Below are positions 23,736 through 59,700 of a DNA stretch of 64,000 nucleotides, in pieces. How positions within the stretch are numbered: position 1 is the first letter of the stretch; the number at the start of each line of letters is the position of its first letter. The stretch lies in assembly GCA_032718475.1 (NCBI GenBank), contig JAUCBJ010005607.1:17883-81882 (forward strand), in the 5' to 3' direction. A program made the translations under genes and the position numbers. Below the pieces are notes generated by a model. The model had not been told where the DNA came from and made no database searches. It saw nothing but the letters and a program-made list of their open reading frames with translations. The DNA is from Nemertoderma westbladi (lineage: Eukaryota; Animalia; Xenacoelomorpha).

Positions 23736-25133
23736 AAATAAAATTTAAAATTTATTTGATATACATGTAGGTGGTATTGCAATCTAAGAGATAAATTACG
23801 CATTAATTAATTGTCAGAATAATATCAAGGGTATATTTATAATAATGAATTAATAAATACATACAATATTGCAATGTTATATATAGTTAATATACGGAAA
23901 TAATAATAACCTTAAGAAAATAAAACTGAATAATCACTAAATAATAATTTATTTCACAATAATTCATTTAAATCAATTTGCTTGAAATCACATCCCTCCA
24001 GAGGTCGGGTGGGGGGGGGGGGGGGGGGGGCTGACACCACGCTGAGCCTGAGGTGGTCCATCATCAGGGGTCTGGGGTCACAGCCCCCAACAGGGTTCAG
24101 CTGGTGGGCGATCCCCAAGTAGGCGAGGGAATCCCGACTGGGTTTTGTCTTGGTTTGATACGCGTCGCCGCGTTCGCTTACTGTGGCTGATTATGGGCTG
24201 AAAGGCCGAAGGCCGCTATAATAAAAGAGTTTGGTGTTAATGTTGTTGATCTCTGATAGGTATAGATACCGGTAATACAGCACAAGTACAATAAATGTGT
24301 TTGGTGACGATGACAGTTGAAAACCGTTCGACATGTACACTCTATAAAACCAACTGAAGGCACAATTAATGGGTAACGGTTATATATAATTACTACACAT
24401 GGAATATTGCTATCTACAGTTTGGCCTGGCCAATGGATCTAGGACACTTCCCCCCGGACAGTTCCCCCCGGACACTTCCCCCCCGGACACTTCCCCCCCC
24501 GGACACTTGCCCCCTGGACACTTCCCCCCCGCCCAAGTAGGACACTTCCTCCCCGGACACTTCCCCCCGGACAGTTCTCCCCCGGACACTTCCCACAGGA
24601 CAGTTCCCCCCCGGACACTTCCCCCCCCGTCCAAGTAGGACACTTCCCCCCCCGGACACTTGCCCCCCGGACACTTCCCCCCCGCCCAAGTAGGACACTT
24701 CCTCCCCGGACACTTCCCCCCGGACAGTTCTCCCCCGGACACTTCCCACAGGACAGTTCCCCCCCGGACACTTCCCCCCCGTCCAAGTAGGACACTTGCC
24801 CCCCGGACACTTCCCCCCCCAGACACTTCCCCCCCGGACACTTCCCCCTGGACAGTTACCCCCCGGACACTTCCCCCCCGGACAGTTCCCCCCCGGACAC
24901 TTCCCCCCCGCCCAAGTAGGACACTTCCCCCCCGGACACTTTCCCCCCGGACACTTCCCCCCCGGGCACTTGCCCCCGGACACTTCCCCCCCAGTTAAAG
25001 TGTTAATCTGGGTGCATCAAAGCAATAAACAAAGGTTAAAGATGGTTACAGGACAAGTTGTATTTAGACAAGTTTTTTCAAAATTATAAAAGAAACATTT
25101 TTATAGTCATATTTTGTTTGTTTTTCTTTTAAT

Positions 25134-27255: not shown

Positions 27256-27878
27256 AAATGCAGCTGCAATGCAGCATGCCGATCCTAGTAGTAGTAGTAG
27301 CAAACAATACGATGTAATTGCATTGATAAAACTCATAAATAAAACTTGGATATAAAATGAAAAATCGGGATGCAAAAGATCACTTTCTTAGCTACGAAAG
27401 GAAAATTGGATACAACTTATCCGGATACAAGCGTTCCGGTTACCTTACAAATTGAAAAATAAGAATGTGCGAAGTTAAGAACAGTCGGGGGGGAAGTGTC
27501 TGGGGGGGAAGTGTCCGGGGGGAGTGTCCTACTTGAGCGGGGGGGGGGGAACTGTCCAGGGGGGAAGTGTCCGGGGGGGGGGGAAGTGTCCAAACACCCT
27601 GGCCAATGAATGCACATTAATCAGATGGTAACCTGCCCCACCATTGGCTAATCTCTTTCTCCCCGCTGGCAATCCCTAATCTCTGTGCTAGCTTTCTTTC
27701 TCCCCCGAGATGGCTTGTAACCTGTCATCTCTCCCTAACTAACCAATTGGCAATATAAGTTGCCCTGTGCGTTGGTAGGTGACATTATATTGGTAATGTC
27801 ACCTAGCCAACTATAATTGGTAAATCGCCAGTTTCCCCATTTTCCGCTGGGTGGTGCTGCGAATTTTATCCGCTAACA

Positions 27879-30690: not shown

Positions 30691-31597
30691 TGTTAGCGCA
30701 TTTGATAAAAAAGATGTTCTTTCAATCTCAATTTCATATATTGTGACTCCTTGCTGATTATGCTGAAAACACATGCAGTTAAGATCTAACTTTTCGGTCT
30801 GATACAATGAACGGAATGGCGCTAGTATACCTTCAATAAAGGGCCGCACACTATTTGGAGAATACTGATAAATAATCGTAAACCCCTCAACTTTCTTAAT
30901 TACTGAGGTAAGCAGAAGGGTGTACCAGTAGCAATTGCGACTCAAATTTATAGTTGTTTTTGTGTGAAATAAATGCTATTTCATAATCCCTACGTATGTC
31001 AGTTGCAATCCTCCTTATATATGATCAAATTCAGTGACAGTCGGCAAATCAGTGTGCATTAGTGTGAATTAGTGTGAAGATGTGTGAAGGTTAATAAAGC
31101 ATTCCTAAAGAATGCACCATTTGTGATACCTTATAGCCTCTAATTGTGATTAGTGTAAGTCATAAATCTGTTTGATACTTAAAGCGCCACGTCCCAAAGG
31201 AACTGTTAATATTTCCCCGAAAGTAAATATAGTTGTCGGAGATTATATAGTAGCGATCTATCGAATAATACAAAGTAGCCTACTGCAATAACTTTCTCTA
31301 GAACCAAATCCAGTCTCCCATACCGTGGGTCATACGCCGCGCATATGGTTTCAACTGATGTCAATTAGCAAGGGCAATAGTCTATTTAAGGATACACTTA
31401 AATTAGCAGGTTAAACTGTTAAAGGTCTAAAAGCGTGAACATTAATAGATTTTTTCTTTTATTGCTCAGTAGGCAATAAACCCTAACGTACCGGTCGGAC
31501 GGTAAACTGTAGGCTTAGTTGACCCGAACCGGTACTTTACAGCAGTATTACTTCGATTGTGAAATATTGTATATTGTAGGCTGTTAGAGGATTAGGG

Positions 31598-32072
31598 AGT
31601 AGTATGATAAACAACTTAAATAAAACAGCGTCTGCCATAGTCTACCATGTTAAAGAATTTCCCGAACGGCTCTTGCCGCACCTACTTACTATGATTACCA
31701 TTGTGTCACCCCACCCACTTACTATGGTTACCATTGCGCATATGTAAAATATGTCACCACTGTTTATATGTGACATATGTGGTATAAGGCCAGTCCGCAG
31801 ACGGAAGTAATTTAATTAATTCGTGTCTACCAGTTGGCGTTTGACCTTGAACCGCAATAGGTAAAACCCAATATAGTAAGTGGGTTGCAGACGTTTGTTA
31901 TATAGTCTTTAACAAGATTTCGTGATTTGATGAAAAAATGGGGCGAGCCATGAAGCGAGTGAAGCCTTAGCATATGGGTTAAGGTTATAGTATTTATAAT
32001 ATTATTTTCAATTTGATTATTCTACCTATGGGGCGAGCCATGAAGTGAGTGATAGCATCGAAGTAAGGTTAT
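31598..32072 (+). repeat. Left terminal inverted repeat of the Polinton
   Basis: Reverse complement of 51171-51644. Subterminal ggggcgagccatgaagtgagtga repeats continue to about 32500. Confidence 0.93.
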
Positions 32073-36797: not shown

Positions 36798-37238
36798 TTA
36801 TTTTATTAATGAAAGTGTCCACAGTAATAACAATAAATCATTGTACCGCAAATTAGAGGTGAATATATTCATTGCTCCGGGATTTTTCGGCACCTCGGTT
36901 AGATAATACAGACAAAATAGACCGCACTGAGTCGAATGTGGCGCTTGAAATATTTTACGATTCCAAGTATGCCTTTGGGTATATTTATGCAACCAATATG
37001 ATATTTTCGGTGGTGGGGCTTTACCAAACGAATCTAAATAATAAGCAATTCTGTTAACCACGCGTACGCAAGACCAGTGTTGCCTCGGTAGGCCTATACG
37101 TTGATTATTAATAATAAATGAATAATTTTGTTTATGCTTATTTTTTTTTGCGTGTATTAGGTGTAATTGGTCGATTGCGTAAACACCGATGTATTCGGGC
37201 CCCACCGGGAATTTCGCTAATTGTATAGAGTCCAACAT
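36798..37238 (-). CDS. Polinton adenain-like cysteine maturation protease
   Basis: QHW (His), YYLDSFG (Asp), Q...CGLFCLYYL (Gln/Cys). Confidence 0.9.
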   Translation of the reverse strand: MLDSIQLAKFPVGPEYIGVYAIDQLHLIHAKKNKHKQNYSFIINNQRIGLPRQHWSCVRVVNRIAYYLDSFGKAPPPKISYWLHKYTQRHTWNRKIFQAPHSTQCGLFCLYYLTEVPKNPGAMNIFTSNLRYNDLLLLLWTLSLIK

Positions 37239-37332: not shown

Positions 37333-38566
37333 TTATTCGGTTATTATTTCCTTGGCTTCCGAAATAGATAGAAGAGCGTCATAGCTTGCCATTAATATAA
37401 CGTTAATAGTGTTAACTAGCGCATTACTAAATTTCAGAATCAAATGCCCGCTTGTATGTATACTAGGTTGAATCTCATGGCTTTGATCGCCTCCTGCGGT
37501 AAGATCAAATACTATCAAAGGAAATTGGGTACGAAACCGTTCTGGTGTTAGAGAGCAAAATACGCCGCTCAAGCTCTTGAACACGTTCATTAAACTTTCG
37601 AATTCCAACATAAAATTGTTTTCCGGAAAGTTAGGGCGATATGGATACCATTGTATAATACGGGAGTCGATGTTTAGTTCGGCATAATTTAAACCGAAAT
37701 GGTTAAAATGTAGCGGATTACTGCTTAATTCCCCGTTGAAGCTGACGTTGGTAAGCATTCCAATCAAAATATACTTAGGTAATTTCCCTTGGATTATGTT
37801 CGATTCTGTATAACTGGACTGTCCGCCACCAATAGTGAAGGTTTTCACTTCTTGTTTTAACAAGTTATAAATAAAGTCATTTTTTTGTGACCCCAACAAA
37901 TGCGTGCGCATAACCTCGGCATCAATCCTGTGGCATTTTATTTTTAAATTAATATCCATGATTTCAACTCTTGGGTTTGCCAACTTTCAAAAAAAAATTA
38001 TTCGATACTCGGTCTATACGAAGTCGAATGTTAATTCCTGGTGGCAGTAATTTGTCCTGACTTGTCAAGTCTAGAAAAATTGGGGCCACTACGAATTTAA
38101 CATAATTCCCACGAACGTCGTTCCCAGAAACGACAGGTACCCCACCTAGATTATTATCTGTATCCTCATAACCACCAGCTCTTAAAATACCGCGTTTTTC
38201 ATTAGCATCTGTCAACAGTAATGTCTGAAATGTAGACTTATAGGCGTAGAACCCATTCGAGGTTTCAACTAGCTTTTCATTTAGGTACAACGAACAATTT
38301 TCAAATAGTGACCCACCCGGGTAATTGAGATGGTGGAGGGTTGTATCGTCGTTAGCCCTATTACCGTCCCACGTAATTTTATATTTAATGTGAAATTTCG
38401 AATTCTTTAAATCAGTATATAGAACATTTGACTGGGGTATAAAGAACTCTATTTGCCTGGCATTCGCGTCAAGAGTAGAGATCGGGTAGATATGCAAAAA
38501 ATGTGAAGATGTATATTCTCGCTGATTTGTTTTACTCGAGAATAATGATAATTCTAATTTACTCAT
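37333..38566 (-). pseudogene. Polinton major capsid protein (double jelly-roll), frameshifted at about 37970
   Basis: KLELSLF, IEFFIP...YTDLKNS, SLFENCSLYLN, YAYKS, QDKLLPPG; then GKLPKYILIGM, FNGELSSNPLHFNHF, FDLT. Confidence 0.9.
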
Positions 38567-38603: not shown

Positions 38604-39101
38604 TCACTTTTTACGTTTGCGCCCAACGTTCATACCCACACTTGGGTGTCGCCGTTTCCCGCTCCTCTTTTTTTTACTTTTCGGGTTTGTAAATTCATTG
38701 TATACCCGTTGGGCGATTTGGCATGTCTTTGGATGAGGTTCTAACCGCGCGGCCACTTTATTTATCAAATCATCTGCTTTACTGCGTAAAATACGTTTTC
38801 CTTCCGGTATTATGTATTTCCGCGCCACTTTTGCTGCTTTGGGGAGTGCTTTAGTTAGCACCTTTCTCCCTAACTTGCGCGCTAATATACCGAGGCCAGT
38901 TGTTAATATTCCGTGCCCACGCTGACGATTTTGGGTGTATCGCTGGCCGAATTTATTATTCTTATTATTCCATACACCAGTAGATGGGCCAAACCCGGGG
39001 AGAATGCTTCCACCTTTAAAAACGGGTATATCGCTATAATTCCCACTTCTCAGTTGGATTTGTGGGGTGCTATATAATTTAAACAAATTAGAATCTGACA
39101 T
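38604..39101 (-). CDS. Polinton basic core/virion protein
   Basis: PVFKG and RQRGHGI motifs followed by an amphipathic segment and a K/R-rich tail; lies immediately upstream of MCP. Confidence 0.7.
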   Translation of the reverse strand: MSDSNLFKLYSTPQIQLRSGNYSDIPVFKGGSILPGFGPSTGVWNNKNNKFGQRYTQNRQRGHGILTTGLGILARKLGRKVLTKALPKAAKVARKYIIPEGKRILRSKADDLINKVAARLEPHPKTCQIAQRVYNEFTNPKSKKKRSGKRRHPSVGMNVGRKRKK

Positions 39102-39223: not shown

Positions 39224-39817
39224 TTAATTTGATGACAACCATTTCCCATAACCAACTGCGAGTTTCATAGAACAGTAATTAAAACAAGAATCTTTATCAG
39301 AATGGTAGGCACAATTTGTTATTGCCGAATAATCATGGAAAATGCATTTGGTGTCATAATCGACATATTTTTCGTTTATGCCGTACGTTTCTAGAAGTGT
39401 TCCATTCACATTAAATTCATTTTTTAAAATAAATAATTTCGGTATTCCGCGTATTAATATTTGAAACCCCAACTGTTTTTTTTCTTGTAACCATTCCTGT
39501 ATGTACATTTTAAATGCGCTTTGGTCCATAAATCCGTAGTCAAAATTAATGTGATGCGTAATATTGGCGAGTTGTATGAGATGATCGTATTCGCTTAAAC
39601 TTAAAATTTTTGCGGGCAGACCATTAATAAACCATACGTTTTCTAATGATTTGATGGTAGTATTATAAGCCGCAAACTCTTTAAAATAAATGGTTGCAAC
39701 GGGGTGTTGGCCGATCTGCGGATGATGCGTATAATATTGGAAATCTACTATTATTCCTGGGTTTTCCAGCGTCGGGTAATAATCACGCCCGCGGCTGCGA
39801 CTTAGAAATTTATCCAT
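39224..39817 (-). CDS. Polinton conserved protein, putative DnaQ/RNase H-fold with Cys/His cluster
   Basis: IIVDFQ...FKEFA, ILIRG.PK, C-terminal C..H...C.YH...C...CS pattern. Confidence 0.55.
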   Translation of the reverse strand: MDKFLSRSRGRDYYPTLENPGIIVDFQYYTHHPQIGQHPVATIYFKEFAAYNTTIKSLENVWFINGLPAKILSLSEYDHLIQLANITHHINFDYGFMDQSAFKMYIQEWLQEKKQLGFQILIRGIPKLFILKNEFNVNGTLLETYGINEKYVDYDTKCIFHDYSAITNCAYHSDKDSCFNYCSMKLAVGYGKWLSSN

Positions 39818-39891: not shown

Positions 39892-40698
39892 TCAGTCAAT
39901 TCGTATAAAATGAAGCGTCAATATTGAATTTCCATAATGAAAGCGCAACAGATCACCCGAATCCCCAACCAATTTAGCCCGTATATAGCGTAAATTAGAT
40001 GTTACTTTAAGTTTTTTATAGTATATCTGTTTGACTTCCCTAGTAATGACTTCACCGTATTCCCCTTCTAATGGTATGGTGCGCAACAGCCGATATTCGT
40101 TATTGTCCACAAATTGAGATTCAACACAATTAAGGTGAATATTTATGTTAGGGTCTAGTATCTCGACTGCGTCAGGATGTTTACGGCACTGGTACTTATT
40201 ATTCCACGGATTAATTCTAATTAAATTATAATCTCCGACGTCGGTTTTTACGCACTTGAAACCTAATTTATCAATATCGTGCTCTATTAATCCTAGGTAA
40301 CCACCCAAACGTTTGCTAACAAAGATTTCCCATTGTTTTCCTTTGAAATGAATAGTTATATCGCCTGACCTCGCTCTATTATCAACTATATTAATTTGTG
40401 CTTTAATAATGCTTTTGTTGAAGAACTCAATGATTCTTTCCAATGTCAGGAACGACCCTTCTGGGAGAGTGACATCTCTTGTATCCATTTTTTTATTTTT
40501 TATAGCCTTTATATAAATGTTACTATTATCGTGACGAATACTAGATACGTAGGTTATACTAGTCAAACCTACTAACCATTGCCCTCTAGCGATAGGTAAA
40601 GTAATTTGTAAATTTATTTGGAAATCGCTAGCATTATTAAGTGGAAATTCTATTGGGTTCGCGTTTGAAGGTAGTACAACATAATAACTATTCATCAT
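39892..40698 (-). CDS. Polinton minor capsid protein (penton) paralog 2
   Basis: YVVLPSNA...FPLNNASDFQINL...WLVGLTSI; C-terminal VESQFV...LLRTIP...YKKL...F...SILTLHF. Confidence 0.85.
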   Translation of the reverse strand: MMNSYYVVLPSNANPIEFPLNNASDFQINLQITLPIARGQWLVGLTSITYVSSIRHDNSNIYIKAIKNKKMDTRDVTLPEGSFLTLERIIEFFNKSIIKAQINIVDNRARSGDITIHFKGKQWEIFVSKRLGGYLGLIEHDIDKLGFKCVKTDVGDYNLIRINPWNNKYQCRKHPDAVEILDPNINIHLNCVESQFVDNNEYRLLRTIPLEGEYGEVITREVKQIYYKKLKVTSNLRYIRAKLVGDSGDLLRFHYGNSILTLHFIRID

Positions 40699-41575
40699 TA
40701 TACCAGTTTTGTAATTGCGACCGTTTTTTTAGTTCTAGAACTAAAATTGTTTTACCACCATGAAACACTATATGCTTTCCTTTATGATCGCGAAGCGTTA
40801 TACTAATTGTATTAACTAATTTTTGATTTTTTAACTGTTTGTAATGAGTGTTTTCGAACTCTTGACTTATAAATGAGTATGGTTGCCATTTTAACGGAAT
40901 TATCCGCAAAAGAGGAACCATAGAATGCCCCACGTGGGAAGATTCAATTATATCTGTATATATAAACATTGTATGTCTATCCCTCGTTATATCACAGGGT
41001 TCAGGAAATTCAATTCCATTTTTGTCTGAATTCCTAGAGCCTAAACTTAGTAAGTTGTCTTCTGGGTTGTAATGTATTGACCAAAACGCGCCAAGACCAT
41101 GTATGTTATTTTTTAAAGACGATAAGCCAAATATATTTATTAAATCCCCGTAGAATTGGAAATAGCGTCCTTTCATAGAATGCAAATGTATTTTCGATGT
41201 GTGCTTGTGATAATTAAACTTAACATCGGAGAAACCATAATGTTCTACGGAATTTTTTTTCAAATATACGGTAATATAATTTATAATTGACTCAACGGAA
41301 GCATACAGCCCATGATTAAGATCGATTTCAATAAGATTATACGGGGCAATGTGGAATGGTATATCCACATCTTCCATGTATTCACCAATTTTAATTCCGG
41401 ATCTTTGCTCAATATTCCTATAAGTTGATACATATTGTATTTCTTTTAGGCCCACAACCCAATCCGTGGTAATGGGGATAGGTTTGGACAATTCAATTGT
41501 AAAATCGCTCCGGGTGTTGTTAGGATATTTATCTAGACTGGCGTCAGAAGTCAATGTCAAATGTAAGCGATCCAT
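40688..41575 (-). CDS. Polinton minor capsid protein (penton) paralog 1
   Basis: LTLTSDASLDKYPNNTRSDFTIEL...WVVGLKEI; FIYTDIIE..HVGH..VPLLRII...HYKQL...ITLRD..G. Confidence 0.88.
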   Translation of the reverse strand: MDRLHLTLTSDASLDKYPNNTRSDFTIELSKPIPITTDWVVGLKEIQYVSTYRNIEQRSGIKIGEYMEDVDIPFHIAPYNLIEIDLNHGLYASVESIINYITVYLKKNSVEHYGFSDVKFNYHKHTSKIHLHSMKGRYFQFYGDLINIFGLSSLKNNIHGLGAFWSIHYNPEDNLLSLGSRNSDKNGIEFPEPCDITRDRHTMFIYTDIIESSHVGHSMVPLLRIIPLKWQPYSFISQEFENTHYKQLKNQKLVNTISITLRDHKGKHIVFHGGKTILVLELKKRSQLQNWYNDE

Positions 41576-42666
41576 TATTGTATCCTATCAACCCACCGGT
41601 GCTTCGCATAACCAACGAATTTTACCAGGTATTGTTTTTTCCCTGTTTTTTTGTTTACTACTTTTTCCTTGATTACTTTTTCAATTGGTAAGAACTCAAA
41701 CGGTTCTTTCACCTTTTTCATTTCATATTGATAAAATGTCCCTTTAATAACACGCCTATTCACATCCATAACTTCGTACATAGGGTACGGCTCTCGATCC
41801 ATCCGTATTCTAGAAATTTCGAAAATTTCCCAGGTATAGTTAGGTGTATATCCTTTGGAAAATGGTGTCGCGGTTAAACTCAGACGCACTTTATCGCCAA
41901 CTTTGAAATAAACTCGACACTGTTCGCGGCGTTTCTTTCTATTGGGATGGCGCACACTGCCATATAGTTTTAAAAATAAGCCAGTTTCATTATTTTTATT
42001 GACTAAGTTTGGCGCCATACCGATGGTTCTATGTATTGAATTATTATATGAAATTACCAGCTTTGGTAATATGTCGATCCATTTCTTATTTTGCCGCCTT
42101 GTGAACACTTTATACATTTTCGACTTAAGTGTGCGGTTAAGCCTCTCACAGATGCTAGCTTTAAATTGGCTAACTAATGTATAAAAATTAACATTATTAT
42201 TCTGTAAGAATTCTTTCACTAATTTATTTACAAACTCAGTACCCTGATCAACCGCCAGTCTTTTAGGCTTTCTTTCTTCGAATATTGTGGTTAGGGCGCG
42301 TTTAATTTCGACACCGGTTTTATGTTTTAACCCTAGTGCCCACGCCTTGCGACTAAAGCAATCGATACAAGTAATTATGTAACCATAACCATTATTCTCC
42401 ACCCTAAAGGGTTGCATATCGCATATGTCCGCCTGATATAGATCTCCAATGCCGTCCGTGAAAATTTTTGATGTCGGGTAATGGCGCCTAGCCGGCGCGT
42501 GTAGGGAATACGTTCATTGGGAGCTCAACCACTTCTTTGCGCGATTTCTCGTAACTTTAGCGGCTTTCGCTAGTTTGGTTACGCTCGCGAAACCGGCAGC
42601 ATTTGAAACATCGTAATATATTCTTCCCAGTCGTTTGTTTGTTCGATTTTCTACGATTCTCCCCAT
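41575..42666 (-). pseudogene. Polinton retroviral-like (rve) integrase with C-terminal chromo-like domain; one premature stop
   Basis: YY...AGFAS..KL, YSLH.P, QADICDM, IDCFSR, DQGTEF, ERLNRTLK, YNNSIH.TIGM.P, KGYTPNYT.E, IEKVI...YLVKFVGY. In-frame TGA at about 42514. Confidence 0.92.
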
Positions 42667-43439: not shown

Positions 43440-44073
43440 TGCCCTAATGGGTTGAAAATATCACCCCTAACTCTTATACTATCATCCATTTTTGATGAAA
43501 GTCTAAGAGAAGGTGTGTGAATAGTTTTTGTGTGGCGTCGCTATATGCTTGAACAATAAAATTGCTATTTTTTGGGTACACTTGCCGCGCTATATAACTT
43601 ATTTGATTTGCGTCGCGGGGATTTTTTGTGAAAATACAATATTGGGCATTTAGACTTCTAGTCTGTGTTTCCACCCCTTTACTGAAAAAATTTTGTGTTA
43701 TATAGATAATGAAACAGGAAGTATGATGGCAGGTTTTTGTGAAGCTTTCTGTCAAACTCTCATCACTCCTACTTTCGCTTAACAAGTCGTCTATAATAAT
43801 TAGATCGTTTTCGCGGAAAATAGAATTAATTTTTTGCAGTAAACCTTTGAATAGATGTGTTATACCTGGGAATTAAGGTGGGGTGGCGCCATAAAAGAAT
43901 AATACACGCTTCGGGGTTATATCAAAAACTAAATTTTTATTTTTTACGATTTTTGATACCAGCACTGTTTTTCCGGAAGAACTTGGACCCGCAATAATCA
44001 TGGCCGAACCCATCTTGAAAGAGGCGTCGTATGATGTGATTGGTTCCTGCGATATCGCCGGCTCTCGGGACAT
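43440..44073 (-). pseudogene. Polinton A32/FtsK-like DNA packaging ATPase, frameshifted
   Basis: Walker A GPSSSGKT; Walker B LIIIDDL at about 43790; FTK..HH...YITQN.F...SLNAQY...KNPRD..QI...ARQ. Confidence 0.9.
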
Positions 44074-44090: not shown

Positions 44091-44555
44091 TCAGTAGATG
44101 GGAAACCTAGAAACTTGACGGTTGATGCGTGTACCAGAGGTACTAGGTCTATACCCCCGGCGGGATTGGGCTAATTTTCTGCCTCTTACAGCCGTTATTA
44201 TGGGTGATATTTTCTGATAAGCGTTAAGCCCACTCATTAAACCAGAGATTAGTAGATTTATAAATCCGCCCCTTTGCACCAATCGTTTACGGTAAATTCT
44301 GATGGGATACTTGGCTGATGTTGGTTTTTTAGCAATCTCCCGTATTGTTTTTTTATGGCGTTTTAACCTCGCGATTGTTTGCTCAGGAATTTTTACGTTA
44401 CCATTTAATACATTTAGATTAATTTTAATTAGAAAACTTATAAGTTCATCGGTTCCACCGACGCGTAAGAAGGTTTTTCTACGGTTAAGGGAGGCGTTAG
44501 ATAAGAACTTTAAATCCCCGTCAAATTGTTTAATTAAAGCTTTGAGTGATTTCAT
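44091..44555 (-). CDS. Polinton conserved virion protein with adenain-type cleavage site (pX/pVI-like)
   Basis: LNVLNGNV...LKRHKK.IR.IA...LVQRGG|FINLLISGL amphipathic segment. Confidence 0.75.
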   Translation of the reverse strand: MKSLKALIKQFDGDLKFLSNASLNRRKTFLRVGGTDELISFLIKINLNVLNGNVKIPEQTIARLKRHKKTIREIAKKPTSAKYPIRIYRKRLVQRGGFINLLISGLMSGLNAYQKISPIITAVRGRKLAQSRRGYRPSTSGTRINRQVSRFPIY

Positions 44556-44970: not shown

Positions 44971-45531
44971 TTAGATATTTCTACCTAAATGACTATCTAA
45001 ATTACCAATAAAATTCAAAAACTTTGGAAAAAATACTCGAAATATCCCGGGTCTTGCCATACACACAACATTTCGTGTGTAAAAAACGCAAAATGTTATG
45101 ATATTAGAACTAGTTTTACCCCGACGATAAAACTGCACAATAATATTATTAAATATCTCCGGCTCATATTTCACCTCCGCATTATAATAATTATCTAAAA
45201 AATGAAACCTGACCGTTTTCATTAATTTCCTATAGTCTATGTCTAGATTGTTAATAATATAAGTTTGGCTATTGATTGAAATAAAAGTTAGTTTATAATC
45301 AGTATGCTTATATATATACTTAATAATTTTTTTTATTTTAGGCGATTTACCGAGTACAGTGACCTTACCGATCGGGAAAAAGAGACACGTCCATCCGCAA
45401 ATTTTGGCGATATATTGAAAAGGATTTAAGATGAGTTTTCCATTTCGAATTCGTTTAGCCAGCACATCGAATGATATGCACCCATCAACCAACCTCAAAC
45501 TTATATTACTGTTGACAACTCTAAAAGACAT
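44971..45531 (-). CDS. TATA-binding-protein-like protein encoded by the Polinton
   Basis: 186 aa, two-repeat TBP core: FRVVN, LAKRIRN (TBP IALRARN), TCLFFPIGKVTVLG (TALIFSSGKMVCTG), KYEPEIF (SYEPELF), FCVFYTRNVVCM (LLIFVSGKVVLT). Confidence 0.8.
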   Translation of the reverse strand: MSFRVVNSNISLRLVDGCISFDVLAKRIRNGKLILNPFQYIAKICGWTCLFFPIGKVTVLGKSPKIKKIIKYIYKHTDYKLTFISINSQTYIINNLDIDYRKLMKTVRFHFLDNYYNAEVKYEPEIFNNIIVQFYRRGKTSSNIITFCVFYTRNVVCMARPGIFRVFFPKFLNFIGNLDSHLGRNI

Positions 45532-45540
45532 CGCAATCCG

Positions 45541-48500
45541 CTATTCTATAATGGGCGGTAAATAAAGCTTAGGGGCAGGCGCTTTACGATCCAAATGTGT
45601 TTTATAATGGCTGTAAGGTAGACTTTCATTAGTTGATGTGTAGTATCTTTTATCTTCCCACAGTGTTAGCGATTTTTTTCTTTGTGAAACGGTGTAGATT
45701 TTATGTAAATTAGATTGAAACCTTTGACTGTATTCGTAATGCTCGCTAACCTCGTTATATACTTTTAAATATGATTCGTGGGAGAGTTTCTTTTTTATAA
45801 CCATTTTTCCTACGCCTTTAGCGACACGTTTTGGAACTGACCCCCCCACGAAAGCTATAACATTTTGGTCTAAGTAAAATAACCTGGTCAAACGGGATAG
45901 ACTTCCCTTCATCCTTTAAATATCTATATTTCCCTTTCTGTTCTACTGTATACAGCGGATGTGTAATAGGATAATTTGAACAGTCTAAAACTTTTTTTGA
46001 TTGTAACGCAGATAAAAATTGGTGTTGGGATAAACCAACACACTGTAAAAAAAAAGAATCTGTGTCCCCACCTAACAAATTTATACTACAATTTAATTCG
46101 GCTTCCAGGGGCTTTAATTTCTCGTAGAAGAAACTGTAATAATCTAACTTCGACAGGTCCAATACAGCTTGGCCTAAAAAAATAGGTTTATGCAAACAAA
46201 CCGCAGTTTTAGATAGGACATGACCTGATAATGAATCAGTGAACATAATTAAATTTTCGTGATTCGGCTTGGATAATAATAAGACACATTTCTCGATTGA
46301 ATTACATAAGCGAAATGAGACACGGTCCCGTATATTCTCCATGCTTTTCCCGAAAAGCGCGTTATTTGTTCCTTTGTGAAACTTATCATAAAAGTCATTG
46401 CTTGCTATTTTTCTTTGCTGGGTGTTATATTCAATAAAATCCTTAAAAATGTAACCTTGCTTAAATCTAATAAGTTTATGAACTTTAATCAAGCGCATGC
46501 CATGATGAATATAAAAGCGCAATAATTTTAGATGCACACCGTACTCATACTTATCAAATTGGGTTAACATCAATTTTTTCGTTGAACTATTGAAAATTTT
46601 ATCACCATTATAATGGAAGCTCGGCTGTGGCATCATGAATAGTCTACAACAGTACAACAGTATTCAAGGTCTACAACAGCAAAATATCCGTATATATCGT
46701 CAATTTCCAGACTCATGATATCGCCACTATCAACATCCAACCATTCAAAGTCAGAATAAGGAAGTTTCTCCGACAATGAACCGCTATATAAACTGTTGAA
46801 ATATAAATTATATAAATGAGCTTCAGGTTTATTAGGGTCGTATGTTTCTGTGCCTGGTATATTCGCATTTGCCATATGAAGGTTGGTGTAAGAAACTCCA
46901 CCCCTAATGGAATTTTCGAATGTTAAATACATTTCATGGTCTGCAAGTAGACGAATATGTGACTTGGAAAATCTCAAAGCCGCGTCCCAACTAACCCCCG
47001 CCATCGTGTAATAGTTCGAGACCTCAAGCGAATAATGTTTAGTACAATAAGCGCGAAAATTTTCAAAAATATCGGCTAGCAGCAACACGTCAAGATGTAA
47101 GTAAGCTTCCAAATAATCAAAAAGTGTCTCACATCCAAATTGTTCCCACGAAAGATGAGCAAATGTATATTCTTCAGGGCTAATAGATGATAATGTTAAT
47201 TCGCTGTAAAACTCTTTTGGATGCGGTAATTTAGTATCCCCCAATTTACTTAAGGAATCGACATATTCATAAGGAAAAACTGACTTACGACGTAAAATTT
47301 CGTTGGTAACATTTGGATATAATTTTCTCATTTGCTTCACAGTGTGCGGAATAACGGTTGTTAAATCTGATACATCTTTTGTCAAAAACCCAGCCAAAGC
47401 AGAAAGGGAAAATCCCATAAACGCGAATGAATCAATAAAATGTATAGTTATTGATTTGCTGGTTGGGAGCCCTCTTACGTCCTTTTCTGGAATAGCATAA
47501 CCAAGCACGCTAAGTGCTTCTGACATTGGAATATCTATGCGAAGTGAGATATATCTTTTAGTATTTTTTGCAATGGTTTCAATTTTCCTGTTTTTATATT
47601 TACTACTGGCAAACCCTTTTTGTAAAATTAAATGTGAATCATAAAAAAAAATTATGACAGACAACTGGGAATAGGTGACGTTTAACACTTAATTGTTTAT
47701 TACAGGAAATACATGCTGCACCAATGAAAGCCCCGTTGTAATGGTTGTGATGCATTACACTTGGATTTATATCTTCCCGAAAAAATGATTTACAATTAAA
47801 GCAATTTGTGGTATGCATATAAGCTTGGTATTGTGTGTGATCCAGGTGTTTGGGGTGGTGTGTGTTAACCCTATTAAACCCGGGGGTCAATATGACCCAC
47901 CCCCCCCGTGGTTTTTTTATTATAATTCTGAAACAAACGCAGTTGGAAATCTGAAATTTTATGACTTTTCCTAAAAATCTATTGTCTTCATGGTAGTGAA
48001 AACCGTTTTCAAAAATATTGGGTACTTTTCGAGTTATAGCACCATTTTTTAACCCTACTTTTGGCACTTTTTTTGAGACGTTTTTTGAAAATTACATTTC
48101 ATTTAATATGAATTGTAACATCTCTAGTTTTGATTTACACCGGTTTTTTGGTGTTAGAAATTGGATGGAATTCATATAAATTGATTTAGAAATTTCAAAC
48201 TTGTTTTTTTCGATGGGTGCCAAATTTTGGTACCAGCACCAAATTTTGAAATAAGTCAATTTTGTAAATTGATTGTTTGAAACTTGTTTTTTGCGCAATT
48301 GGGGTTTTTTGGGGTTCTGGATTCGATGAAATATATACGAGTTGCACCAAGCGTATCAAACTTGTATTTTTCGGTGCTGTGTGCAAATTTTGGTGCTAGC
48401 ACGAAATTTTGAAAATCCATTTAATATATAAAATTGCTTGTGACAATTTATTTCTTGCGTTTTAGAGGTTTATGGCTCTTCTGAATTCAATGGAAAATAT

Positions 48501-49610
48501 AATTATCGAACTAGACATCTCAAACTTGTATTTTTCGGATGTGGGTGCAAAATGTGGTGCTAGCACCAAATTTTGAAAACCATCAAATATATCAATTGAT
48601 TGTGTCACCTTGTTTCTTGCGTTATACGGGTTTGTGATGGTTCTGAATTCAATGGAATCAGTAAAAATTTCATAAGAGTTCTCAAACTTGTATTTTTCGC
48701 CGGTGGGTGAAAATTGTTGTGCCAGCACCAAATTTTGGAAATTATGCAAATTGATAAGTAGATAGTATCACCTTGTTTCTTGCGTTATACGTGTTTATGA
48801 GGGTCCTGAATCCGATGGAATCAATAAAAACAGCACTGGACATCGCAAACTTGTACTTTTTGGTGATGGGTACGAAATTTGGTGCTAGCACCAAAATTTG
48901 CCAAATTACGCCGAAAAATACAAGTAGCAATGATCTGGCATATTAGAAATGTATTACATTAGAATCAGCGCCCTCGAAAACCTGAAAATGTGAATTTATA
49001 GCATCGTTTAAGTGAATTAACAATTTTGTGTTCTAACTGAAAAGTGCTGGTTACTTGTTTTTTTCATTTTTTTCCTACGCAGAGAGGACTAAATAGCCAT
49101 TTATAGTAATCATATCATTTTTAAATATTTTCCAATGTATTTTGCACCCCAAAAAACCTGTATTGAAAAATAATTAGCCGAAAATGTAACTTTCAAATTT
49201 TGTGAAAATTGTGCACTACTTGTAATTTTGGTGCTGCAATATAACCACCCCAGTACATTTTTTCGAAAATTTTTTTTTTCGGTCGGATCCAGACAAGTGA
49301 TACCTACGTACATACAAAAAATCAGACATTTTCGTAAATATTTGTAGATTTTAGAGGGAGGGGTCAATATGACCCCCCCCCCCCCCCCGGTATTTGTACA
49401 ACATTTTATAGCCCGGTACTAATAGGGTTAAAGGTAGACCATTCATAACACTTAAATAAATCAAAAACCAGACTATCGATAAAATTCTGTACCGAGTTAT
49501 TATCGATATTTTGTCTAAATGTAGACAAAAAATAATTTGGTGGGTTACTTAATTCGCTATTGGGCTTTCCCGTATTGAACCGAAGAAAAAGCAAATTCAC
49601 GGTGATAATT
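45541..49610 (-). pseudogene. Protein-primed family B DNA polymerase (pPolB) with endonuclease-VII-like Zn domain; frameshifted, MITE-interrupted, 5' end lost
   Basis: CFNC...HNHYNG.FIGAAC.SCN, HN..YDSHLI, FIDS..F, K.VFPYEY, YL..DV.LLADIFENFR, IRGG, FNSLY (motif A Asp replaced by Tyr), KGTNNALFGK, DTDS, LRPK.Y, AKGV, DKRY. Confidence 0.93.
47869..49427. mobile_element. Non-autonomous piggyBac-like MITE inserted in pPolB
   Basis: TTAA TSD (47865-47868, 49428-49431); TIRs CCCTATTA..CCGGG; subterminal ggggtcaatatgacc repeats. Confidence 0.93.
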
Positions 49611-49612
49611 TT

Positions 49613-50173
49613 ATGGAGTTCGAAGATTGTGGGTACATTGGATATATCTACGACTTTGAAGGGCAATGATTTGTCGGCGTTTGGGAAGCGGATGATATAG
49701 GTAGACAATGGAAGGGTGTTCTATATTACGATGGGTTGAATCTCAGAGCGGATGAATTCTGTTTGCTCGACTTTAACATAGATAAGAATGTTAACGAGAA
49801 TATCGATGAGGTTAGTATGAGGTACAAATCAACCGTTAACGAAAACGGGATATATTTGTCCCACAACTTCGACACCAAGGTTATTTTCATCCCTCGAAAC
49901 AACACAAATGTCAAGATAATTAAGCAATTACAGAAGTACGCGGGCCACGATATTCCGTCTGGGTGTGAGTTTCTACCGATTAAAAAATTAGTTGTTGAGG
50001 CTGCGATTGATGAATTAGCGGACGAGGAACTAATGAAAGTGGAAATGCCGAACAACGCTAGTCAGCTGAAGACGTCCGAAGCAGTAAAAGTCATTGCTAA
50101 GAAAATGGATGAGAAAAAAATCTGGTTGCCCGCGATTGCAGAAAATGAACGGGTAGACGGCGCTGAAGAATGA
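49613..50173 (+). pseudogene. Polinton accessory ORF, unknown function (one internal stop)
   Basis: ATG at 49613 is in frame with ORF 49736-50173, with a single TGA between them. Confidence 0.55.
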
Positions 50174-50435
50174 AAAGAATGATTATAAGGATATTGATAC
50201 CCTCGTTGGGGGTGTGAGCGCTCAGATGAAGATGAAAACACCTACAGCCATGAAAGAACAAGCGCTTAAGCGAAAAATTGATCTCATCGTGAATAAAACA
50301 CCTAGCTATGCGTATGAAGATATCAGCAACTTTGAAGAGGACATCGTCAATGATACGGATGATGGTGAAGACATTTTCAATGAAATCGAGACTAATGGGC
50401 AACCTCAAATAAAGAAGAATAAACATTCAGTGTGA
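50170..50435 (+). CDS. Polinton small acidic accessory ORF (start uncertain)
   Basis: 73-aa ORF 50214-50435 with an acidic C-terminal half, abutting the previous ORF. Confidence 0.4.
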
Positions 50436-50655
50436 ATCTTCGAGCGGTAGAAACTTTATTATATAAATAGACCATGTTCGTGGCGGTGTCGCTGCAACGA
50501 GCCGGGCACGGTTAAATTATTATTATTATTATTTTGTGGTGGTAAATTATTTGTTGGTATAATGAATTATCGATTGAAATAAATATTATATAAATTTATT
50601 TATTTATAGTATTATACATTATTATTATTATTATATACGCATTTATTTATTTTAC

Positions 50656-51090
50656 GTGAATATGTTGGGAGAAAATGAGCTTGTGGTGGATGAAGTGGAT
50701 GTGGATGTGGAGGAAGAGGAGGAAGATGAGGATGTAGCGAAGGAGAACGAAGAGATATTGGTAGCGATGTATGTGAGGGAGAGAGAAGAAGCGCGGCTAG
50801 AAAGATTGTTAAATCCAAGGAATGAGTGGGAGGAGATAGAAAAAAAACATTATTTGGAGGAAGAGGCGAGGAAGAACAGCGCGTGGGGAGAAGATTGGAC
50901 GTTAGAAATGGAGGCGGAGGGGGATAGGAGAGTGCGGGAGGCGGAGAGATGTGCGCGGGAGAAAGCGATGGAGGAGAGAATCAATATGTTGGAAGGAATG
51001 ATGGAGTTGTTGGGTGATGGTGGTGGTGGTAATGATGCAGAGGATCAGGAAGAAGATTGGGCGGATGGTGATAGTGGGATAAGCGGGTAA
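50656..51090 (+). CDS. Polinton highly acidic, Glu/Trp-rich accessory protein
   Basis: 144-aa purine-rich ORF with upstream TATATAAA and downstream AATAAA, next to the right TIR. Confidence 0.6.
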   Translation: MNMLGENELVVDEVDVDVEEEEEDEDVAKENEEILVAMYVREREEARLERLLNPRNEWEEIEKKHYLEEEARKNSAWGEDWTLEMEAEGDRRVREAERCAREKAMEERINMLEGMMELLGDGGGGNDAEDQEEDWADGDSGISG

Positions 51091-51170: not shown

Positions 51171-51644
51171 ATAACCTTACTTCGATGCTATCACTCACTT
51201 CATGGCTCGCCCCATAGGTAGAATAATCAAATTAAAATAATATTATAAATACTATAACCTTAACCCATATGCTAAGGCTTCACTCGCTTCATGGCTCGCC
51301 CCATTTTTTCATCAAATCACGAAATAATGTTAAAGACTTTATAACAAACGTCTGCAACCCACTTACTATATTGGGTTTTACCTATTGCGGTTCAAGGTCA
51401 AACGCCAACCGGTAGACACGAATTAATTAAATTACTTCCATCTGCGGACTGGCCTTATACCACATATGTCACATATACACAGTGGTGACATATGTTACAT
51501 ATGCACAATGGTAACCATAGTAAGTGGGCGGGGTGATACAATGGTAATCATAGTAAGTAGGCAGGGCAAGAGCCGTTCGGCAAATTCTTTAACATGGTAG
51601 ACTATGGCAGACGCTGTTTTAATTAAGTTGTTTATCATACTATT
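51171..51644 (-). repeat. Right terminal inverted repeat of the Polinton
   Basis: Reverse complement of 31598-32072 with a few substitutions. Confidence 0.93.
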
Positions 51645-53914
51645 TTAGGGATTGATCACCCCTTAGTCCTTGTATGGTTTACTTATTCCTGTCGGCTTTA
51701 TTTATCGATAAGTGTCATATTGAGAAGAAGGCGTGTAAACCTGCTCAGATTGTAAAACTAACTTGTAGGCTGGATTGTTGTCTGATTGTTGTTAGGTCTG
51801 AGGTGGATTACAGTATAGGTAGGATAAAGGTAGGATGTCCGATAAAGTGCTAGTTAGGAAGTGGAGGCATCCAGCGCTGTAAGGTAAATCCTCCACGAAA
51901 GAATAAGTCGTACTACGTAGTCTAGAACGCTTACTAACTAATCATTTTGGAGACTGCATATACTGTGGTTTATTTAGGCTTGACTGTGGTCTGTCAGCAT
52001 TTTGGTCTGTGTTTTATTTGAATAGTCTGTATGGGTAGTGTAATATTTATTATTCAAAGTTTATTCAAGTAATTTACAACATTCATGTCCTTAAGTTTAT
52101 TCCTTACAGTAATTCTGCTTGTTATGCATACTGTTATAGTTAAATTAACCCAGGTACTACTTCAGGACTGCTTGGCGTAGGACAGACTGGTGATTTAGTA
52201 CTCCGGTTACTCCAGCAGATACCCTGGTTCTTTTGGCTGTTCACGTATCTTTAACTGCAAGTTATATGTTGTATAAGTGATAGTACCTAATCTAGGGTTT
52301 AGAGTATAGTGCTTTCCTGAAAGTTAATTTAGTGCATAGGCAGTATATATGTGTTGTAACATGGTTAATAGGTCCGTTAGCTATAGGCTTCGATAATTAA
52401 TCTCTAGGTATAGGACACTCTGGGTACGTAGTGTTTATAGTGTAGACTATAAGCCATCAGATGGTGGCATTTCCTTATCAGGACAACACAATTTATTGAA
52501 TACTACTTTATTGGTTTCAAAATTCCGTAATTCCCTGACAGTCTGTAAGAACCAGAAATTCTAGATCCTTGTTAGTCTGGTTCGTAAAATTCTTGTTAAA
52601 TTACCCTAAATATTGTACGTGTAACTTTGTTTATTGTTTACTTAGAGATTGTGTAATCTCAACCTGTTGTAAGTAAGTAATTGTAGTGATAAGTAACTTA
52701 GTTAAGTCGAACTATCCGTATTTAGTGTCTAACCAGTAGCACTCCACTAAGAGCATCCAACCTTTGTGAAGTGACTTCTTACTCAGAAATAATAACATAT
52801 TTCAATAATTGACAAAACCCATTACGGGTATATATATATATTTACAAATTTAACTCAATCAGATTTATAAATTAGTAGGCCTGTTATACATACATCAATT
52901 AGGTCTTAATATCAGTTGAGCCTATTGCTTAATATCAGTCATAGAGTAAAGGGAAATAATTCCTAAAATCGGATATAATCAGTTATTGTTTAATTATTGA
53001 CATTATCGGTGTTTACAGTAAGCTTATTATATATTTATATAACTTAGGCTAAACTTATATACCGGTATTCTGTGACTGATCCTAGTCTGTAGTAATACTG
53101 TTATATATACTATAGGTGTGTACCAGTATTCTAACACTCGATATATACCACGTTACATTGAGTAACAATATTTGGTAACTACGAGACTGACAGTTGATAC
53201 TGATTTGCCCTAGACTTACTTTAACTGTTATTATCGAGATAGGCATTCAACTGTAAATAAATTATGTCTGACCCAAAACAAACAATGTCGGATAGTCTCT
53301 TTGAACAGACGATCTGTGACCCAGATCAAAGTATAGAAAGGCCACAACCGAGGTCTAAGTCCCCTCCTACTGTAAGAAAGGCCATCCTTATGGTAGTTGT
53401 GTCAGACCCTAGGTTAGTGAAGCACCATAGGTCTATTATAGGCACTAGGGCTCAAGTTATGTGAGACCAAGCGATGGCTGTAGAACAGCAGCAGCGCCCT
53501 GACTGAGAGGTTATTTCTCAACCACTCAGTAACTCTAGTTCCAACACGGAAGAGTTAACGCCTGGGATCGGATCAAAGATGGAAGAAGAGGTTTATCCTG
53601 ACCCACTATTGATTCTTCCTGGGGCAGTGCTCACTCGAGTTCTTCTAGCCATAGAAGAACATCAAGCGGACTGGACAAGAAATAAGCGACCGACCAGAGA
53701 TAGTTACGCCGGATACCTGCTGGAAGAATTAAGGTCTATTGTAGAGACTCAATGGAACTTCCCCGGACCCGGACTCCCGTTTAACTTATCTGAAGCTGCC
53801 TGGGAAGACTTGCATCAGATGGGCGTAGTTAGAGATACCAGAGATCCCGCTATATAGAGGAGGTCAGCAGCCGGATATGTCCAGGGATTCTTCAACTCCT
53901 TGGGACGAATAGAA

Positions 53915-56718: not shown

Positions 56719-59700
56719 TTAAGGTGCCCCTTCTAGGAGACAGCATTTCCCTACAGCTCTCCTGTAGGTTTTTCTGTCCTTCGCACCTATCTTACCACCT
56801 ATCCGCACTTCTACCGATCGGACTCTTCCGTCCTCGTCGGAGTAAGTGCCTACAATTCTCGCCAACCGCCATTGGTTGTTGATGATAGTATCATCCATAA
56901 CGATTACGAGATCTCCCTCTTTCAACTCTCTATTCGGCTTCCTCCATTTGCTTCTTTTATGGAGTGTGGGTAGGTATTCTTCTACCCACCTCCTCCAATA
57001 CTCTGCGCTAATTGCTTTAGCGACCTTCCAACTCTGGCGGGAGTGTATATCATCTGGGTCTACACCCCGCATATCGATGGTCGCTGGCCTTTCCATCAGA
57101 AAATGGCTAGGCGTCAGCACGTCTAGTGACTCAGGGTCATCATTCTCCGGATATAGCGGTCTGCTATTAATGATCCCCTCGCACTTCGCAAGCACTGTCC
57201 GTAAGACGTCCTCAGTGACCATGTGGGTGTTCATTAGCTTAGTCATTAGACGCTTTGAACTGCCCACCAGTCTCTCGACGCATCCTAGTGTATGTGGTGC
57301 ATACGGCGTCCTCCTTTCCCACTTCACTTGTCGTCGTCTCATGGCCGCCCTGACTTCCTCCCCTTCCAGGATGTCCAAAGCCTCTGCCATCTCATTCTCT
57401 GCGCCTACAAAGTTGGTGCCATTGTCGCTGTATATCACTGCGATCGTCCCACCTTTGCGGTCCCTAAACCTTTCCAAGGCATTAATGAATGCTGATGCGG
57501 TTGCATCTTGGGCGAGTTCTATCCCTACTGCCCGCGTGTTGTTACATACGAAGATAATGCCGTAGCGTTTCTCCGTGTGCCGCATCACTTTGATCTTTAT
57601 CGGCCCGAACATGTCCACACCGCAATGCGTAAATGGCGGGTCGTGCTGTCTTACCCTACTCGCCGGTAGTGGTGCCATCTCCTGTACGGCTCGCTCCTTC
57701 TTCGCTCGTCGGCAGGTCTGGCACTGCCCCACTACCGCTTTAACCTTCTTCCTTAATTGTTTGACCCAATAGGTCCTCCTTATCTCTGTGAGGGTTCGGT
57801 TGGTGCCCCCATGCAATATCGATTTGTGGGAGTCCCATATAATCTGGTGGACTATTGGCGATCCTGTAGGAATGATGATGGGTTTCGGTGGTACGATTAT
57901 GCTGTTGTTGTATCCCACCCTAGAATTCATTACTAGAATCCCGTCGTCATTGAGTTGTGGCGACAGCGTAATCAGCTCGCTGTCCCGTCGGAGGTGCTGA
58001 TGGTTACCGACGCGTTCCACCTCGTCGCCGTAGTTCTTCCGTTGTTCATAGCGGATCACTGCCTTGGCCGCTCCTTCCAGATCTATGGCTGTCCTGATCT
58101 TCTTGTCCTTGCCAACTCCCGCAAGGAATTTCCCGAAGGCTCTCCAGTACGCCACTAGTTTCTTGGTCTTATACCAACTAGAACTGTAGCTGAGGAGTTT
58201 ATCCATTGGGTTATCGCACAGTTCCCTTCCTGGTTGCACGTCCCTAATCTCCCTCACCATCTGGGAGTATATCTCTTCTCCCTCTGAATCTCCCTCTTCT
58301 CCTTCTGATACTACTTCCGAGCCCGGGTCCACCTTCCTCATCGGTGGCCAGGCCTCCCTATCGCTCAGAAATTGTGGCCCATGTTGCCACAATACTTCCT
58401 TCTTCAGGAAAGTGTGGCGTTCCACGCCCCTCGACAGCAAGTCCGCTGGGTTCTCGTTTGTTGGGCAGTAGTGCCACCTTTCCAGTTCTGTGCTCGCCCT
58501 TATTTCGTCCACTCTATTCGCGACGAATATCGGGTATCTCGTCCTTTCGTTGTGTAGCCAACCAAGCACTACCATGAAGTCCGTCCAGTAGTGTGTCTCC
58601 ACTATGTTGGGAATAGTATCCACTAGGTAGGCTGTGGCTCTTACTCCTAGTCTCGCAGCTGTCAATTCTAACTTGGGAACTGATGCTGAATCTGGCGGCG
58701 TTGACTTTGCTTTGCTAAAGGCTAGCCTTGGCCTATGAGCCCCCTCTTGTTGTACTAAGTAGAGTGCCGCTCCGTACGCTTCCAACGACGCGTCGGAGAA
58801 CATGTGTAGGTCCAGATTCGTCATGTTCCCATCCGGGAAATACACCCTTGGCATGTTGTATGTTCCCATCTTCTCCAAGTTTCCTGTCCATTTGCTCCAC
58901 TGTTTCTTGATTTCCTCTGGTACCTCTACGTCCCATTCATCTTTCAATTTGTATACTCTCTTGAGTATCTGTTTCCCCGTGACTAATAATGGGGATGCTA
59001 GGCCTAGGTGATCGTATATCCTTGCTATATACGATACATAGCCCCTCTTCGTGTGGATGTCTGCGCCCTCCTGGCTCAGCTGATACTTCAGTTCGTCTGT
59101 CTTTCTATCCCACACGGTTCCCAATGCCTTCTGCTGAGATTCTGTTCTTTTAATCGCCATGTCCTGCCCTTTGGCTGTTGTGGGATTATCCATGGTCGAT
59201 TCTGGTTTCCTGTCCTCTATGGCTTTTATAAATTCTTCCGAACTGGATTGGAATTTGGTCAGGTTAAAGCCGGATCCCTTTAGGATGTCGCGAACCTCGC
59301 GCCCTGTATCCAGTATCTCCTTAACCGTATTTCCAGACTCCATTCCGTCGTCTACGTAGAAGCCGCGTCGAATCATATCGACGGCCCTACTGCTGTATCT
59401 ATCTTCCTTCCCCTTTACTGTGTCTCTCACTGCCATAGTCGTCGTAAATGAAGATGACTTGGCACCCATGTTCTGTACTATCATCTTATATGCTGGTATT
59501 ATCGGCGGTTCTTCTTCGCCGTTATACCATAAGAAGCGTTGACTGTCACTATCTTCTTCCGTTACACGGACTTGGTTGAACATGCCTTCTATGTCACACG
59601 TGAAGGCGTGTTTCCCATTTCGAAATCTAAGTAACACCTCTATGCCCGAATTGTATATGTTTGGGCCTTCTAACAGATAGTCGTTTAAGCATTTTCCGTT

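Follow-up and report, generated by a model that had tools for sequence, protein, structure and literature searches.

The TATA-binding protein (TBP) of cellular organisms (PF00352; yeast 7o4i_O and 1ytb, human 1cdw and 5fur) is a saddle made of two lobes, a fold that bends DNA. In TBP–TATA structures, the C-lobe lies on the 5' TA step and the N-lobe on the 3' half of the box, and four phenylalanines intercalate into the DNA. The core gene set of Polintons, also called Mavericks, consists of pPolB, integrase (INT), packaging ATPase, protease (PRO), MCP and mCP. TBPs have also been described in viruses. Those of NCLDVs are divergent two-lobed proteins that keep key phenylalanines (L5.1) (Ravarani et al. 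2020, PMC7221094). Section 11 of that article gives two C-lobe glutamates as the TFIIB contact of TBP; conservation at the first of them is about 40% among viral TBPs, which vary at this contact, and most of the viruses concerned encode their own TFIIB (PMC7221094). The herpesvirus vTBP, KSHV ORF24, offers a functional model, as outlined in PMC7498053: this viral TBP mimic recognises the non-canonical box TATT and recruits host Pol II to late genes; it acts in a viral complex of six proteins and has an N-terminal domain of its own that binds the Pol II CTD. Among Polinton-related elements, MELD viruses with an adintovirus-like PolB carry a 'TBP' gene label in the legend of Fig. 5 of Starrett et al. 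(2021, PMC8502044). There it is a single legend abbreviation in the section on non-animal datasets, and the accompanying text holds no distribution, residue, selection or promoter data for it.

By term search, TBP and TATA go unmentioned in the main text of 10.1101/2023.08.22.554363, PMC11071308, PMC11131425 and 10.64898/2026.10.13.758929, and VLTF3 is the one transcription factor that PMC11131425 mentions. Our literature search found no paper that describes TBP as a lineage-wide Polinton gene or puts it to an experimental test; subscription journals, Repbase reports, figures and bioRxiv supplements may hold mentions. Given that viral TBPs and a TBP label on a Polinton-related virus are already known, novelty is limited. 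The present analysis adds the prevalence of TBP across a clade, its co-divergence with pPolB and a second motif type.

The TBP predicted in the 64,000-nt stretch of DNA analysed here (the window) resembles the cellular protein in its full-length two-lobed saddle, the first asparagine, three phenylalanines and the YEPE stirrup. It differs from it in having a proline at the N-lobe stirrup phenylalanine, a serine at the second asparagine and RN in place of the C-lobe GK turn, in lacking an N-terminal extension and in being encoded by a mobile element. Unlike ORF24, the Polinton TBP is a bare core of 150–200 aa, for which a normal TFIIB route is predicted.

The Polinton and its 186-aa ORF

The window contains a full-length 20-kb Polinton at 31598–51644, which has the terminal inverted repeats (TIRs), the AG start, the 6-bp target site duplication (TSD) and the six core genes of described Polintons. 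The TIRs (31598–32013 and 51229–51644) are 414 nt long and 96% complementary; the left end reads AGTAGT and the right end shows one mismatch (AG...CT ends). The TSD, TTAGGG, stands on both sides of the element, at 31592–31597 and 51645–51650. It is identical to the common animal telomere repeat unit, which may be chance; the flanks hold no telomeric arrays.

The core genes lie on the reverse strand. Along this strand, pPolB (45541–48091, Pfam), broken into at least four pieces, is followed by the 186-aa ORF (44971–45531), by a basic 154-aa ORF with the working name PW (44091–44555; a relative matches Adeno_PX, E=3e-6), by the packaging ATPase (43474–44073, profiles of related loci) and by the rve integrase (41575–42666; Pfam rve E=3e-11, with a weak chromo-like C-terminal match), the last two each split by an in-frame stop. 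Two minor capsid (penton)-like genes (40688–41575 and 39892–40698) come next, and then a Maelstrom/DEDDh-like ORF of 197 aa (39224–39817; Pfam Maelstrom E=0.005, below the cut-off), a basic 165-aa ORF at the position of a core-protein gene (38604–39101; name inferred from position and composition), the MCP gene, split by a frameshift (37333–38566, profiles of related loci), and an adenain-like maturation protease (36798–37238). The minor capsid, protease and other core names outside Pfam were assigned by motif to the gene-cluster profiles of related loci. All six genes of the core set (pPolB, rve integrase, ATPase, protease, MCP and mCP) are present in the element. Many of the closest relatives of the window pPolB carry an endonuclease VII domain (PF02945).

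The preliminary description of this DNA had stressed that the TBP frame is unbroken while pPolB, ATPase, integrase and MCP are disrupted. The pattern holds: those four genes are split, and TBP, the protease, both minor-capsid-like genes and three smaller ORFs are open. It does not hold as a sign of selection. The neighbouring genes carry 7 breaks in about 3200 codons (some gene lengths being approximated), a rate at which a 186-codon gene would be intact with P of about 0.67, so the open frame is uninformative on selection.

The ORF starts with ATG, 9 nt past the pPolB stop at 45541 and on the strand of the core genes, in the arrangement first described. Its own sequence gives little away: it falls below the cut-off of Pfam PF00352 (E=0.0066, 16.7 bits against 22.9), while all 12 relatives described below exceed it (E 6e-11 to 6e-24). 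Its best sequence match in the PDB is 4wzs_D (E=0.11), and direct single-sequence searches with it returned no homologue (0 of 70 candidates; 0 loci), the lone match of one such search, P0001, being a repetitive, unrelated sequence. In the ESM Atlas, 28 of 30 matches were TBPs, with a top score of 0.95 and a low recognition score. A profile built from the 12 relatives, with the window ORF left out of the building, scored 33.8 bits on that ORF (E=5.8e-10), against 4.7 bits for the runner-up among 460 window ORFs and 7.8 for the best of 1000 shuffles. Profile–profile comparison gave TBP a probability of 99.7%.

An AF2 model, built from 33 Polinton-type rows of which one (P0144) later fell with archaeal TBPs, reached a pLDDT of 85.9; a single-sequence AF2 model (pLDDT 32) was set aside. 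Foldseek matched the former to TBP in the PDB with a best E of 6e-10 and a TM of up to 0.72, and the top 44 ranks, among the matches listed, were all TBP chains. VIA aligned it to TBP with Z 14.8 and an rmsd of 2.5 over 166 residues (yeast Z 14.8, human Z 14.4), and the top matches of a BFVD fold search include viral TBPs. The TBP core of the model spans residues 1–183 of the 186, and identity to solved TBPs is 17–20%. Profile and structure searches thus both lead to TBP, with the two saddle repeats that had been aligned by eye, and we regard it as confirmed, at the level of sequence profile and predicted fold, that the ORF encodes a two-lobed, highly divergent TBP.

Distribution, inheritance and selection of the TBP gene

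Relatives were fetched via pPolB, taking the best 80 of 387 metagenome loci together with 4 IMG/VR loci. A search of the 1587 six-frame ORFs of these 84 loci gave two matches near E=1e-4, and one profile-building round extended these to 12 TBP loci, with no reversed decoy under E=1. Within this set, TBP is present in all seven loci that have both MCP and integrase and in 8 of the 11 that have MCP. The other three MCP loci (L053, L069 and L072) reach only 1.8–3.6 kb beyond pPolB and give no proof of absence because they end so close to it. Most of the 72 loci in which TBP is absent are short contigs; the gene was not found in the IMG/VR loci (L001–L004) or in L078. In 9 of the 12 relatives, TBP shares the strand of pPolB, which it follows with one to three ORFs between them, and in the remaining 3 it sits at the far end on the opposite strand. 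The direct pPolB–TBP adjacency of the window, for which other copies were to be searched, recurs in none of the 12, although the gene itself does recur; in 3 runs of 2 samples, the junction from the pPolB end to the TBP start is spanned by relatives of about 82% identity. Accessory genes in or beside related Polintons include a KilA-N domain (L027:6804–7892), a phospholipase A2-like domain (L033:4605–4991) and a ubiquitin-conjugating enzyme fragment (L011:13477–13749).

All 13 TBP carriers fall in one pPolB clade (SH-aLRT 99), outside which lie the IMG/VR loci in the tree (L001–L003) and L078. TBP and pPolB distances are correlated (rho 0.72, p=0.0002, n=13), also when one of each of three close pairs is removed (rho 0.65, p=0.0006, 10 rows), and the two trees share the same two-way split of the carriers, with a TBP-tree support of only 89/94. 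In the TBP tree, 19 Polinton-type rows are separated by a 94/89 branch from 7 archaeal and 4 giant-virus TBPs and P0144; the comparison proposed earlier with viral TBPs is in this way obtained, and that with animal TBP/TRF only through a proxy, the eukaryote-like giant-virus TBP L096. The window TBP is the most divergent of the set, with an end branch of 4.58. On these sequence grounds, TBP belongs to the regular, conserved gene content of a single pPolB clade and is not an oddity of one element.

The dN/dS of TBP is 0.09, 0.25 and 0.22 in three of five pairs, the other two being saturated at synonymous sites, values that indicate purifying selection in the relatives. In the same organism, the TBP ORF is covered by contigs from 3 studies, two fully and one partly; none of them, among the matches listed, spans the whole window. 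The TBP variants seen there (32 difference rows) list no stop and no indel. Minority variants comprise 9 synonymous and 13 nonsynonymous changes (pN/pS 0.37, p=0.024). The 10 differences between the window copy and the high-depth copies (contig depth not being copy number) divide into 3 synonymous and 7 nonsynonymous (p=0.34), which is no significant constraint.

DNA-face residues, upstream motifs and a proposed promoter role

Residues were mapped onto canonical-type TBPs with 33 family rows that include near-duplicates. Three of the four intercalating phenylalanines of canonical TBP are kept in the window protein, F127 and F150 in 33 of 33 rows and F52 in 29. The preliminary description had counted all four, but the N-lobe stirrup phenylalanine aligns to Pro37, a proline in 21 of the 22 rows with a residue, and Phe38 occurs only in the window sequence (1 of 22 rows), with the high-depth copies differing at codon 38. 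The first-repeat asparagine was rightly recognised (N7, kept in 19 of 20 rows with a residue). The second DNA-face asparagine is replaced by Ser88 (T in 18, S in 9 and N in 6 of the 33 rows), leaving the symmetric pair incomplete. At the turn where the family has Gly-Lys (G in 32 and K in 30 of 33 rows), the window TBP has Arg153-Asn154. Its helix 62–81 is strongly basic (7 K/R, 1 D/E), which is not a family trait, the net charge in the 12 relatives ranging from -4 to +3.

The stirrup YEPEIF (122–127) is kept, and across the 33 rows E125 is always acidic and E123 is acidic in 30. We infer that positions C.L3.2 and C.L3.4, as numbered in PMC7221094, correspond to this YEPE pair, E123 and E125, so both acidic TFIIB-contacting residues of the C-lobe stirrup would be present in the window TBP. 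NCLDVs mostly encode their own TFIIB and vary at its contact, whereas in the Polinton family the acidic stirrup is preserved and the element encodes no RNA polymerase; the Pfam TFIIB family gave no match in the ORFs of the element or the unassigned ORFs of 7 relatives, a search that a very divergent TFIIB could escape and in which the loci of the relatives are partly incomplete. With the glutamate pair kept and no TFIIB gene found, host TFIIB and Pol II are likely to be recruited.

Upstream motifs were examined as exact 7-mers before genes in 13 loci, and with approximate shuffles the best of them reached an uncorrected p<=0.05 in five. In the 150 nt upstream of the late genes, ATAAAC is present for 7 of 7 in L011 and for 6 of 7 in L010, five of the latter having it 32–35 nt from the ATG; in L011, moreover, ATAAACAA occurs 10 times on the coding strand and never on the other, with 0.7 expected. 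TAAGC precedes all eight late genes of L047. None of these three loci has its own motif before TBP itself. The motif type broadly tracks two clades, with both types in L033 and neither clearly in L025 and L056. The window element itself shows no significant shared upstream motif (best 7-mer p=0.27): TAGTA stands before 7 of 10 genes and was rejected (empirical p=0.31), and TATAACG and CTAGTAT were not significant as boxes. Many genes of the element abut, and so, speculatively, its promoters may be few or its box a different one.

We consider it probable that the TBP serves as the promoter-recognition factor of the element and recruits host TFIIB and Pol II to its capsid, packaging and integrase genes, a reading drawn from the residues described above and from analogy with known TBPs. 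The suggestion in the preliminary description that host Pol II is directed to the promoters of the element gains indirect support from the conserved glutamate pair, the lack of a TFIIB match in the ORFs searched and the shared box of several relatives. The TBP fold, its recurrence in the clade, its co-divergence with pPolB and purifying selection in the relatives support this role, as do the kept C-lobe phenylalanines and acidic stirrup, the change from phenylalanine to proline in the N-lobe, the failure to find a TFIIB in the ORFs searched and the clade-linked motifs of some relatives. By inference, the protein would also bind DNA, recognise the site proposed next, contact TFIIB and act at late genes. 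It is predicted to bind a non-canonical TATA-like site. There the 5' TA step would be kinked by the conserved C-lobe, which would also hold host TFIIB, and the rebuilt N-lobe would change how the 3' half is read. Element promoters would thereby be read poorly by host TBP, and host TFIIB and RNA polymerase II would be brought to the capsid, packaging and integrase genes. The window TBP is the most divergent of the set, with Arg153-Asn154 and its long end branch, and its function may therefore have shifted. The motif before late genes could instead be read by host TBP or by another factor.

Other readings of the gene have to be weighed against this one. The ORF is intronless and an intact frame is expected by chance, features that would suit a gene recently retrocopied from host TBP/TRF or one carried along neutrally. 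Such an origin is effectively refuted and in our judgement extremely unlikely, given the low identity to solved TBPs, the presence of homologues throughout the clade that co-diverge with pPolB at a dN/dS well below 1, and the position of the Polinton-type TBPs on one side of the 94/89 branch, apart from archaeal and eukaryote-like giant-virus TBPs. None of the three outcomes that the preliminary description had named as refuting its reading was observed. A decoy or host shut-off function, the decoy idea having been raised in that description, in which the TBP would bind host TFIIB or TBP regulators non-productively and damp transcription or silencing, would account for a kept glutamate pair beside the loss of one intercalating phenylalanine and, in 27 of 33 rows, of the second asparagine, and the basic helix of the window protein could be read in the same way. 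We think it unlikely, as the three DNA-face phenylalanines and the first asparagine are as conserved as the stirrup, the basic helix is peculiar to the window protein when set against the range in the relatives, and the clade-linked motifs of relatives point to a target in cis.

A promoter factor might also work with an element-encoded or unusual adaptor, in the orthogonal style proposed for giant viruses or that of the herpesvirus vPIC, and not with plain host TFIIB. Viral TBPs usually pair with partners of their own (PMC7221094, PMC7498053), and one or two small conserved ORFs stand just upstream of TBP in L035, L036, L045, L047 and L056, and also in L025 and L057; they are candidate co-factors in one clade. 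They have no TFIIB match or other Pfam match of note, and were not detected in the window element or in L010, L011, L027, L033 and L063. Nor does the window TBP carry an additional domain comparable to the N-terminus with which ORF24 binds Pol II, and this variant seems to us quite unlikely. By eye, two of the small TBP-adjacent ORFs in relatives had looked PC4-like and one like an ssDNA-binding protein; no such Pfam match was obtained. The gene could, finally, encode an architectural DNA bender acting at AT-rich TIRs or origins in replication, packaging or integration, with no role in transcription. Its co-orientation with pPolB in most relatives, its abutment on pPolB in the window and the TATA-like runs in the TIRs would agree with this, but bending does not need a nearly invariant acidic TFIIB stirrup and the gene position varies, including the 3 of 12 relatives with TBP at the far end on the opposite strand; we rate it very unlikely.

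If the promoter-recognition role is taken further, a large Polinton clade may possess a one-protein late-transcription switch, an extension that we put forward tentatively and with some doubt: the vertically inherited TBP would have a rebuilt N-lobe co-evolving with the box of its clade (of the TATAAAC type in one branch and the TTAAGC type in the other) and an intact C-lobe that plugs into host TFIIB. Were this so, no smaller viral system of promoter specificity would be known, and these 'transposons' would run a staged, virus-like expression programme. A lineage-wide TBP and candidate boxes offer a way to test, using a single small protein and short reporters, how the capsid genes of Polintons are expressed and whether these elements go through a viral life cycle in animals. 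The family may also be seen as a natural library of altered DNA-reading surfaces with a conserved TFIIB contact, useful for specificity studies and orthogonal promoters. Where genomes or metagenomes are annotated with short 'TBP-like' genes that lack introns, these may, in turn, be Polinton genes and not host paralogues.

Accessory ORFs and repeats in the window

The Maelstrom/DEDDh-like ORF at 39224–39817 (-) scored 0.91 to Maelstrom-domain clusters and 0.94–0.95 to unnamed arthropod and Preplasmiviricota clusters in the Atlas. ORFs resembling it adjoin TBP in L027, L036, L045 and L047, and a profile of those missed the window ORF. It is a candidate DEDDh-type nuclease or piRNA-pathway mimic.

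The N-terminal half of pPolB was not recognisable in the element. At the expected 5' part of the gene, 48187–48900 holds 4.4 copies of a 163-bp unit (73% matches), possibly an inserted repeat. Near the right TIR, three opposite-strand ORFs of 167, 92 and 170 aa, the last very acidic, occupy 49670–51090 (+) and have no clear Pfam family.

Outside the Polinton, an open 1795-aa BEL/Pao retrotransposon ORF (Peptidase_A17, DUF1759, DUF5641 and integrase zinc-binding) lies at 56719–62106 (-). Together with the type of the element and the arthropod-rich Atlas clusters for an ORF nearby, this retrotransposon suggests that the host is probably an animal. A 79-bp tandem satellite, whose approximately 58 in-register copies are some 90% identical, extends from 1423 to about 6200. 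A C-rich GGACACTT(C)n repeat forms inverted arrays at 24440–24986 and 27478–27580, separated by about 2.5 kb, which are possibly the ends of another transposon.
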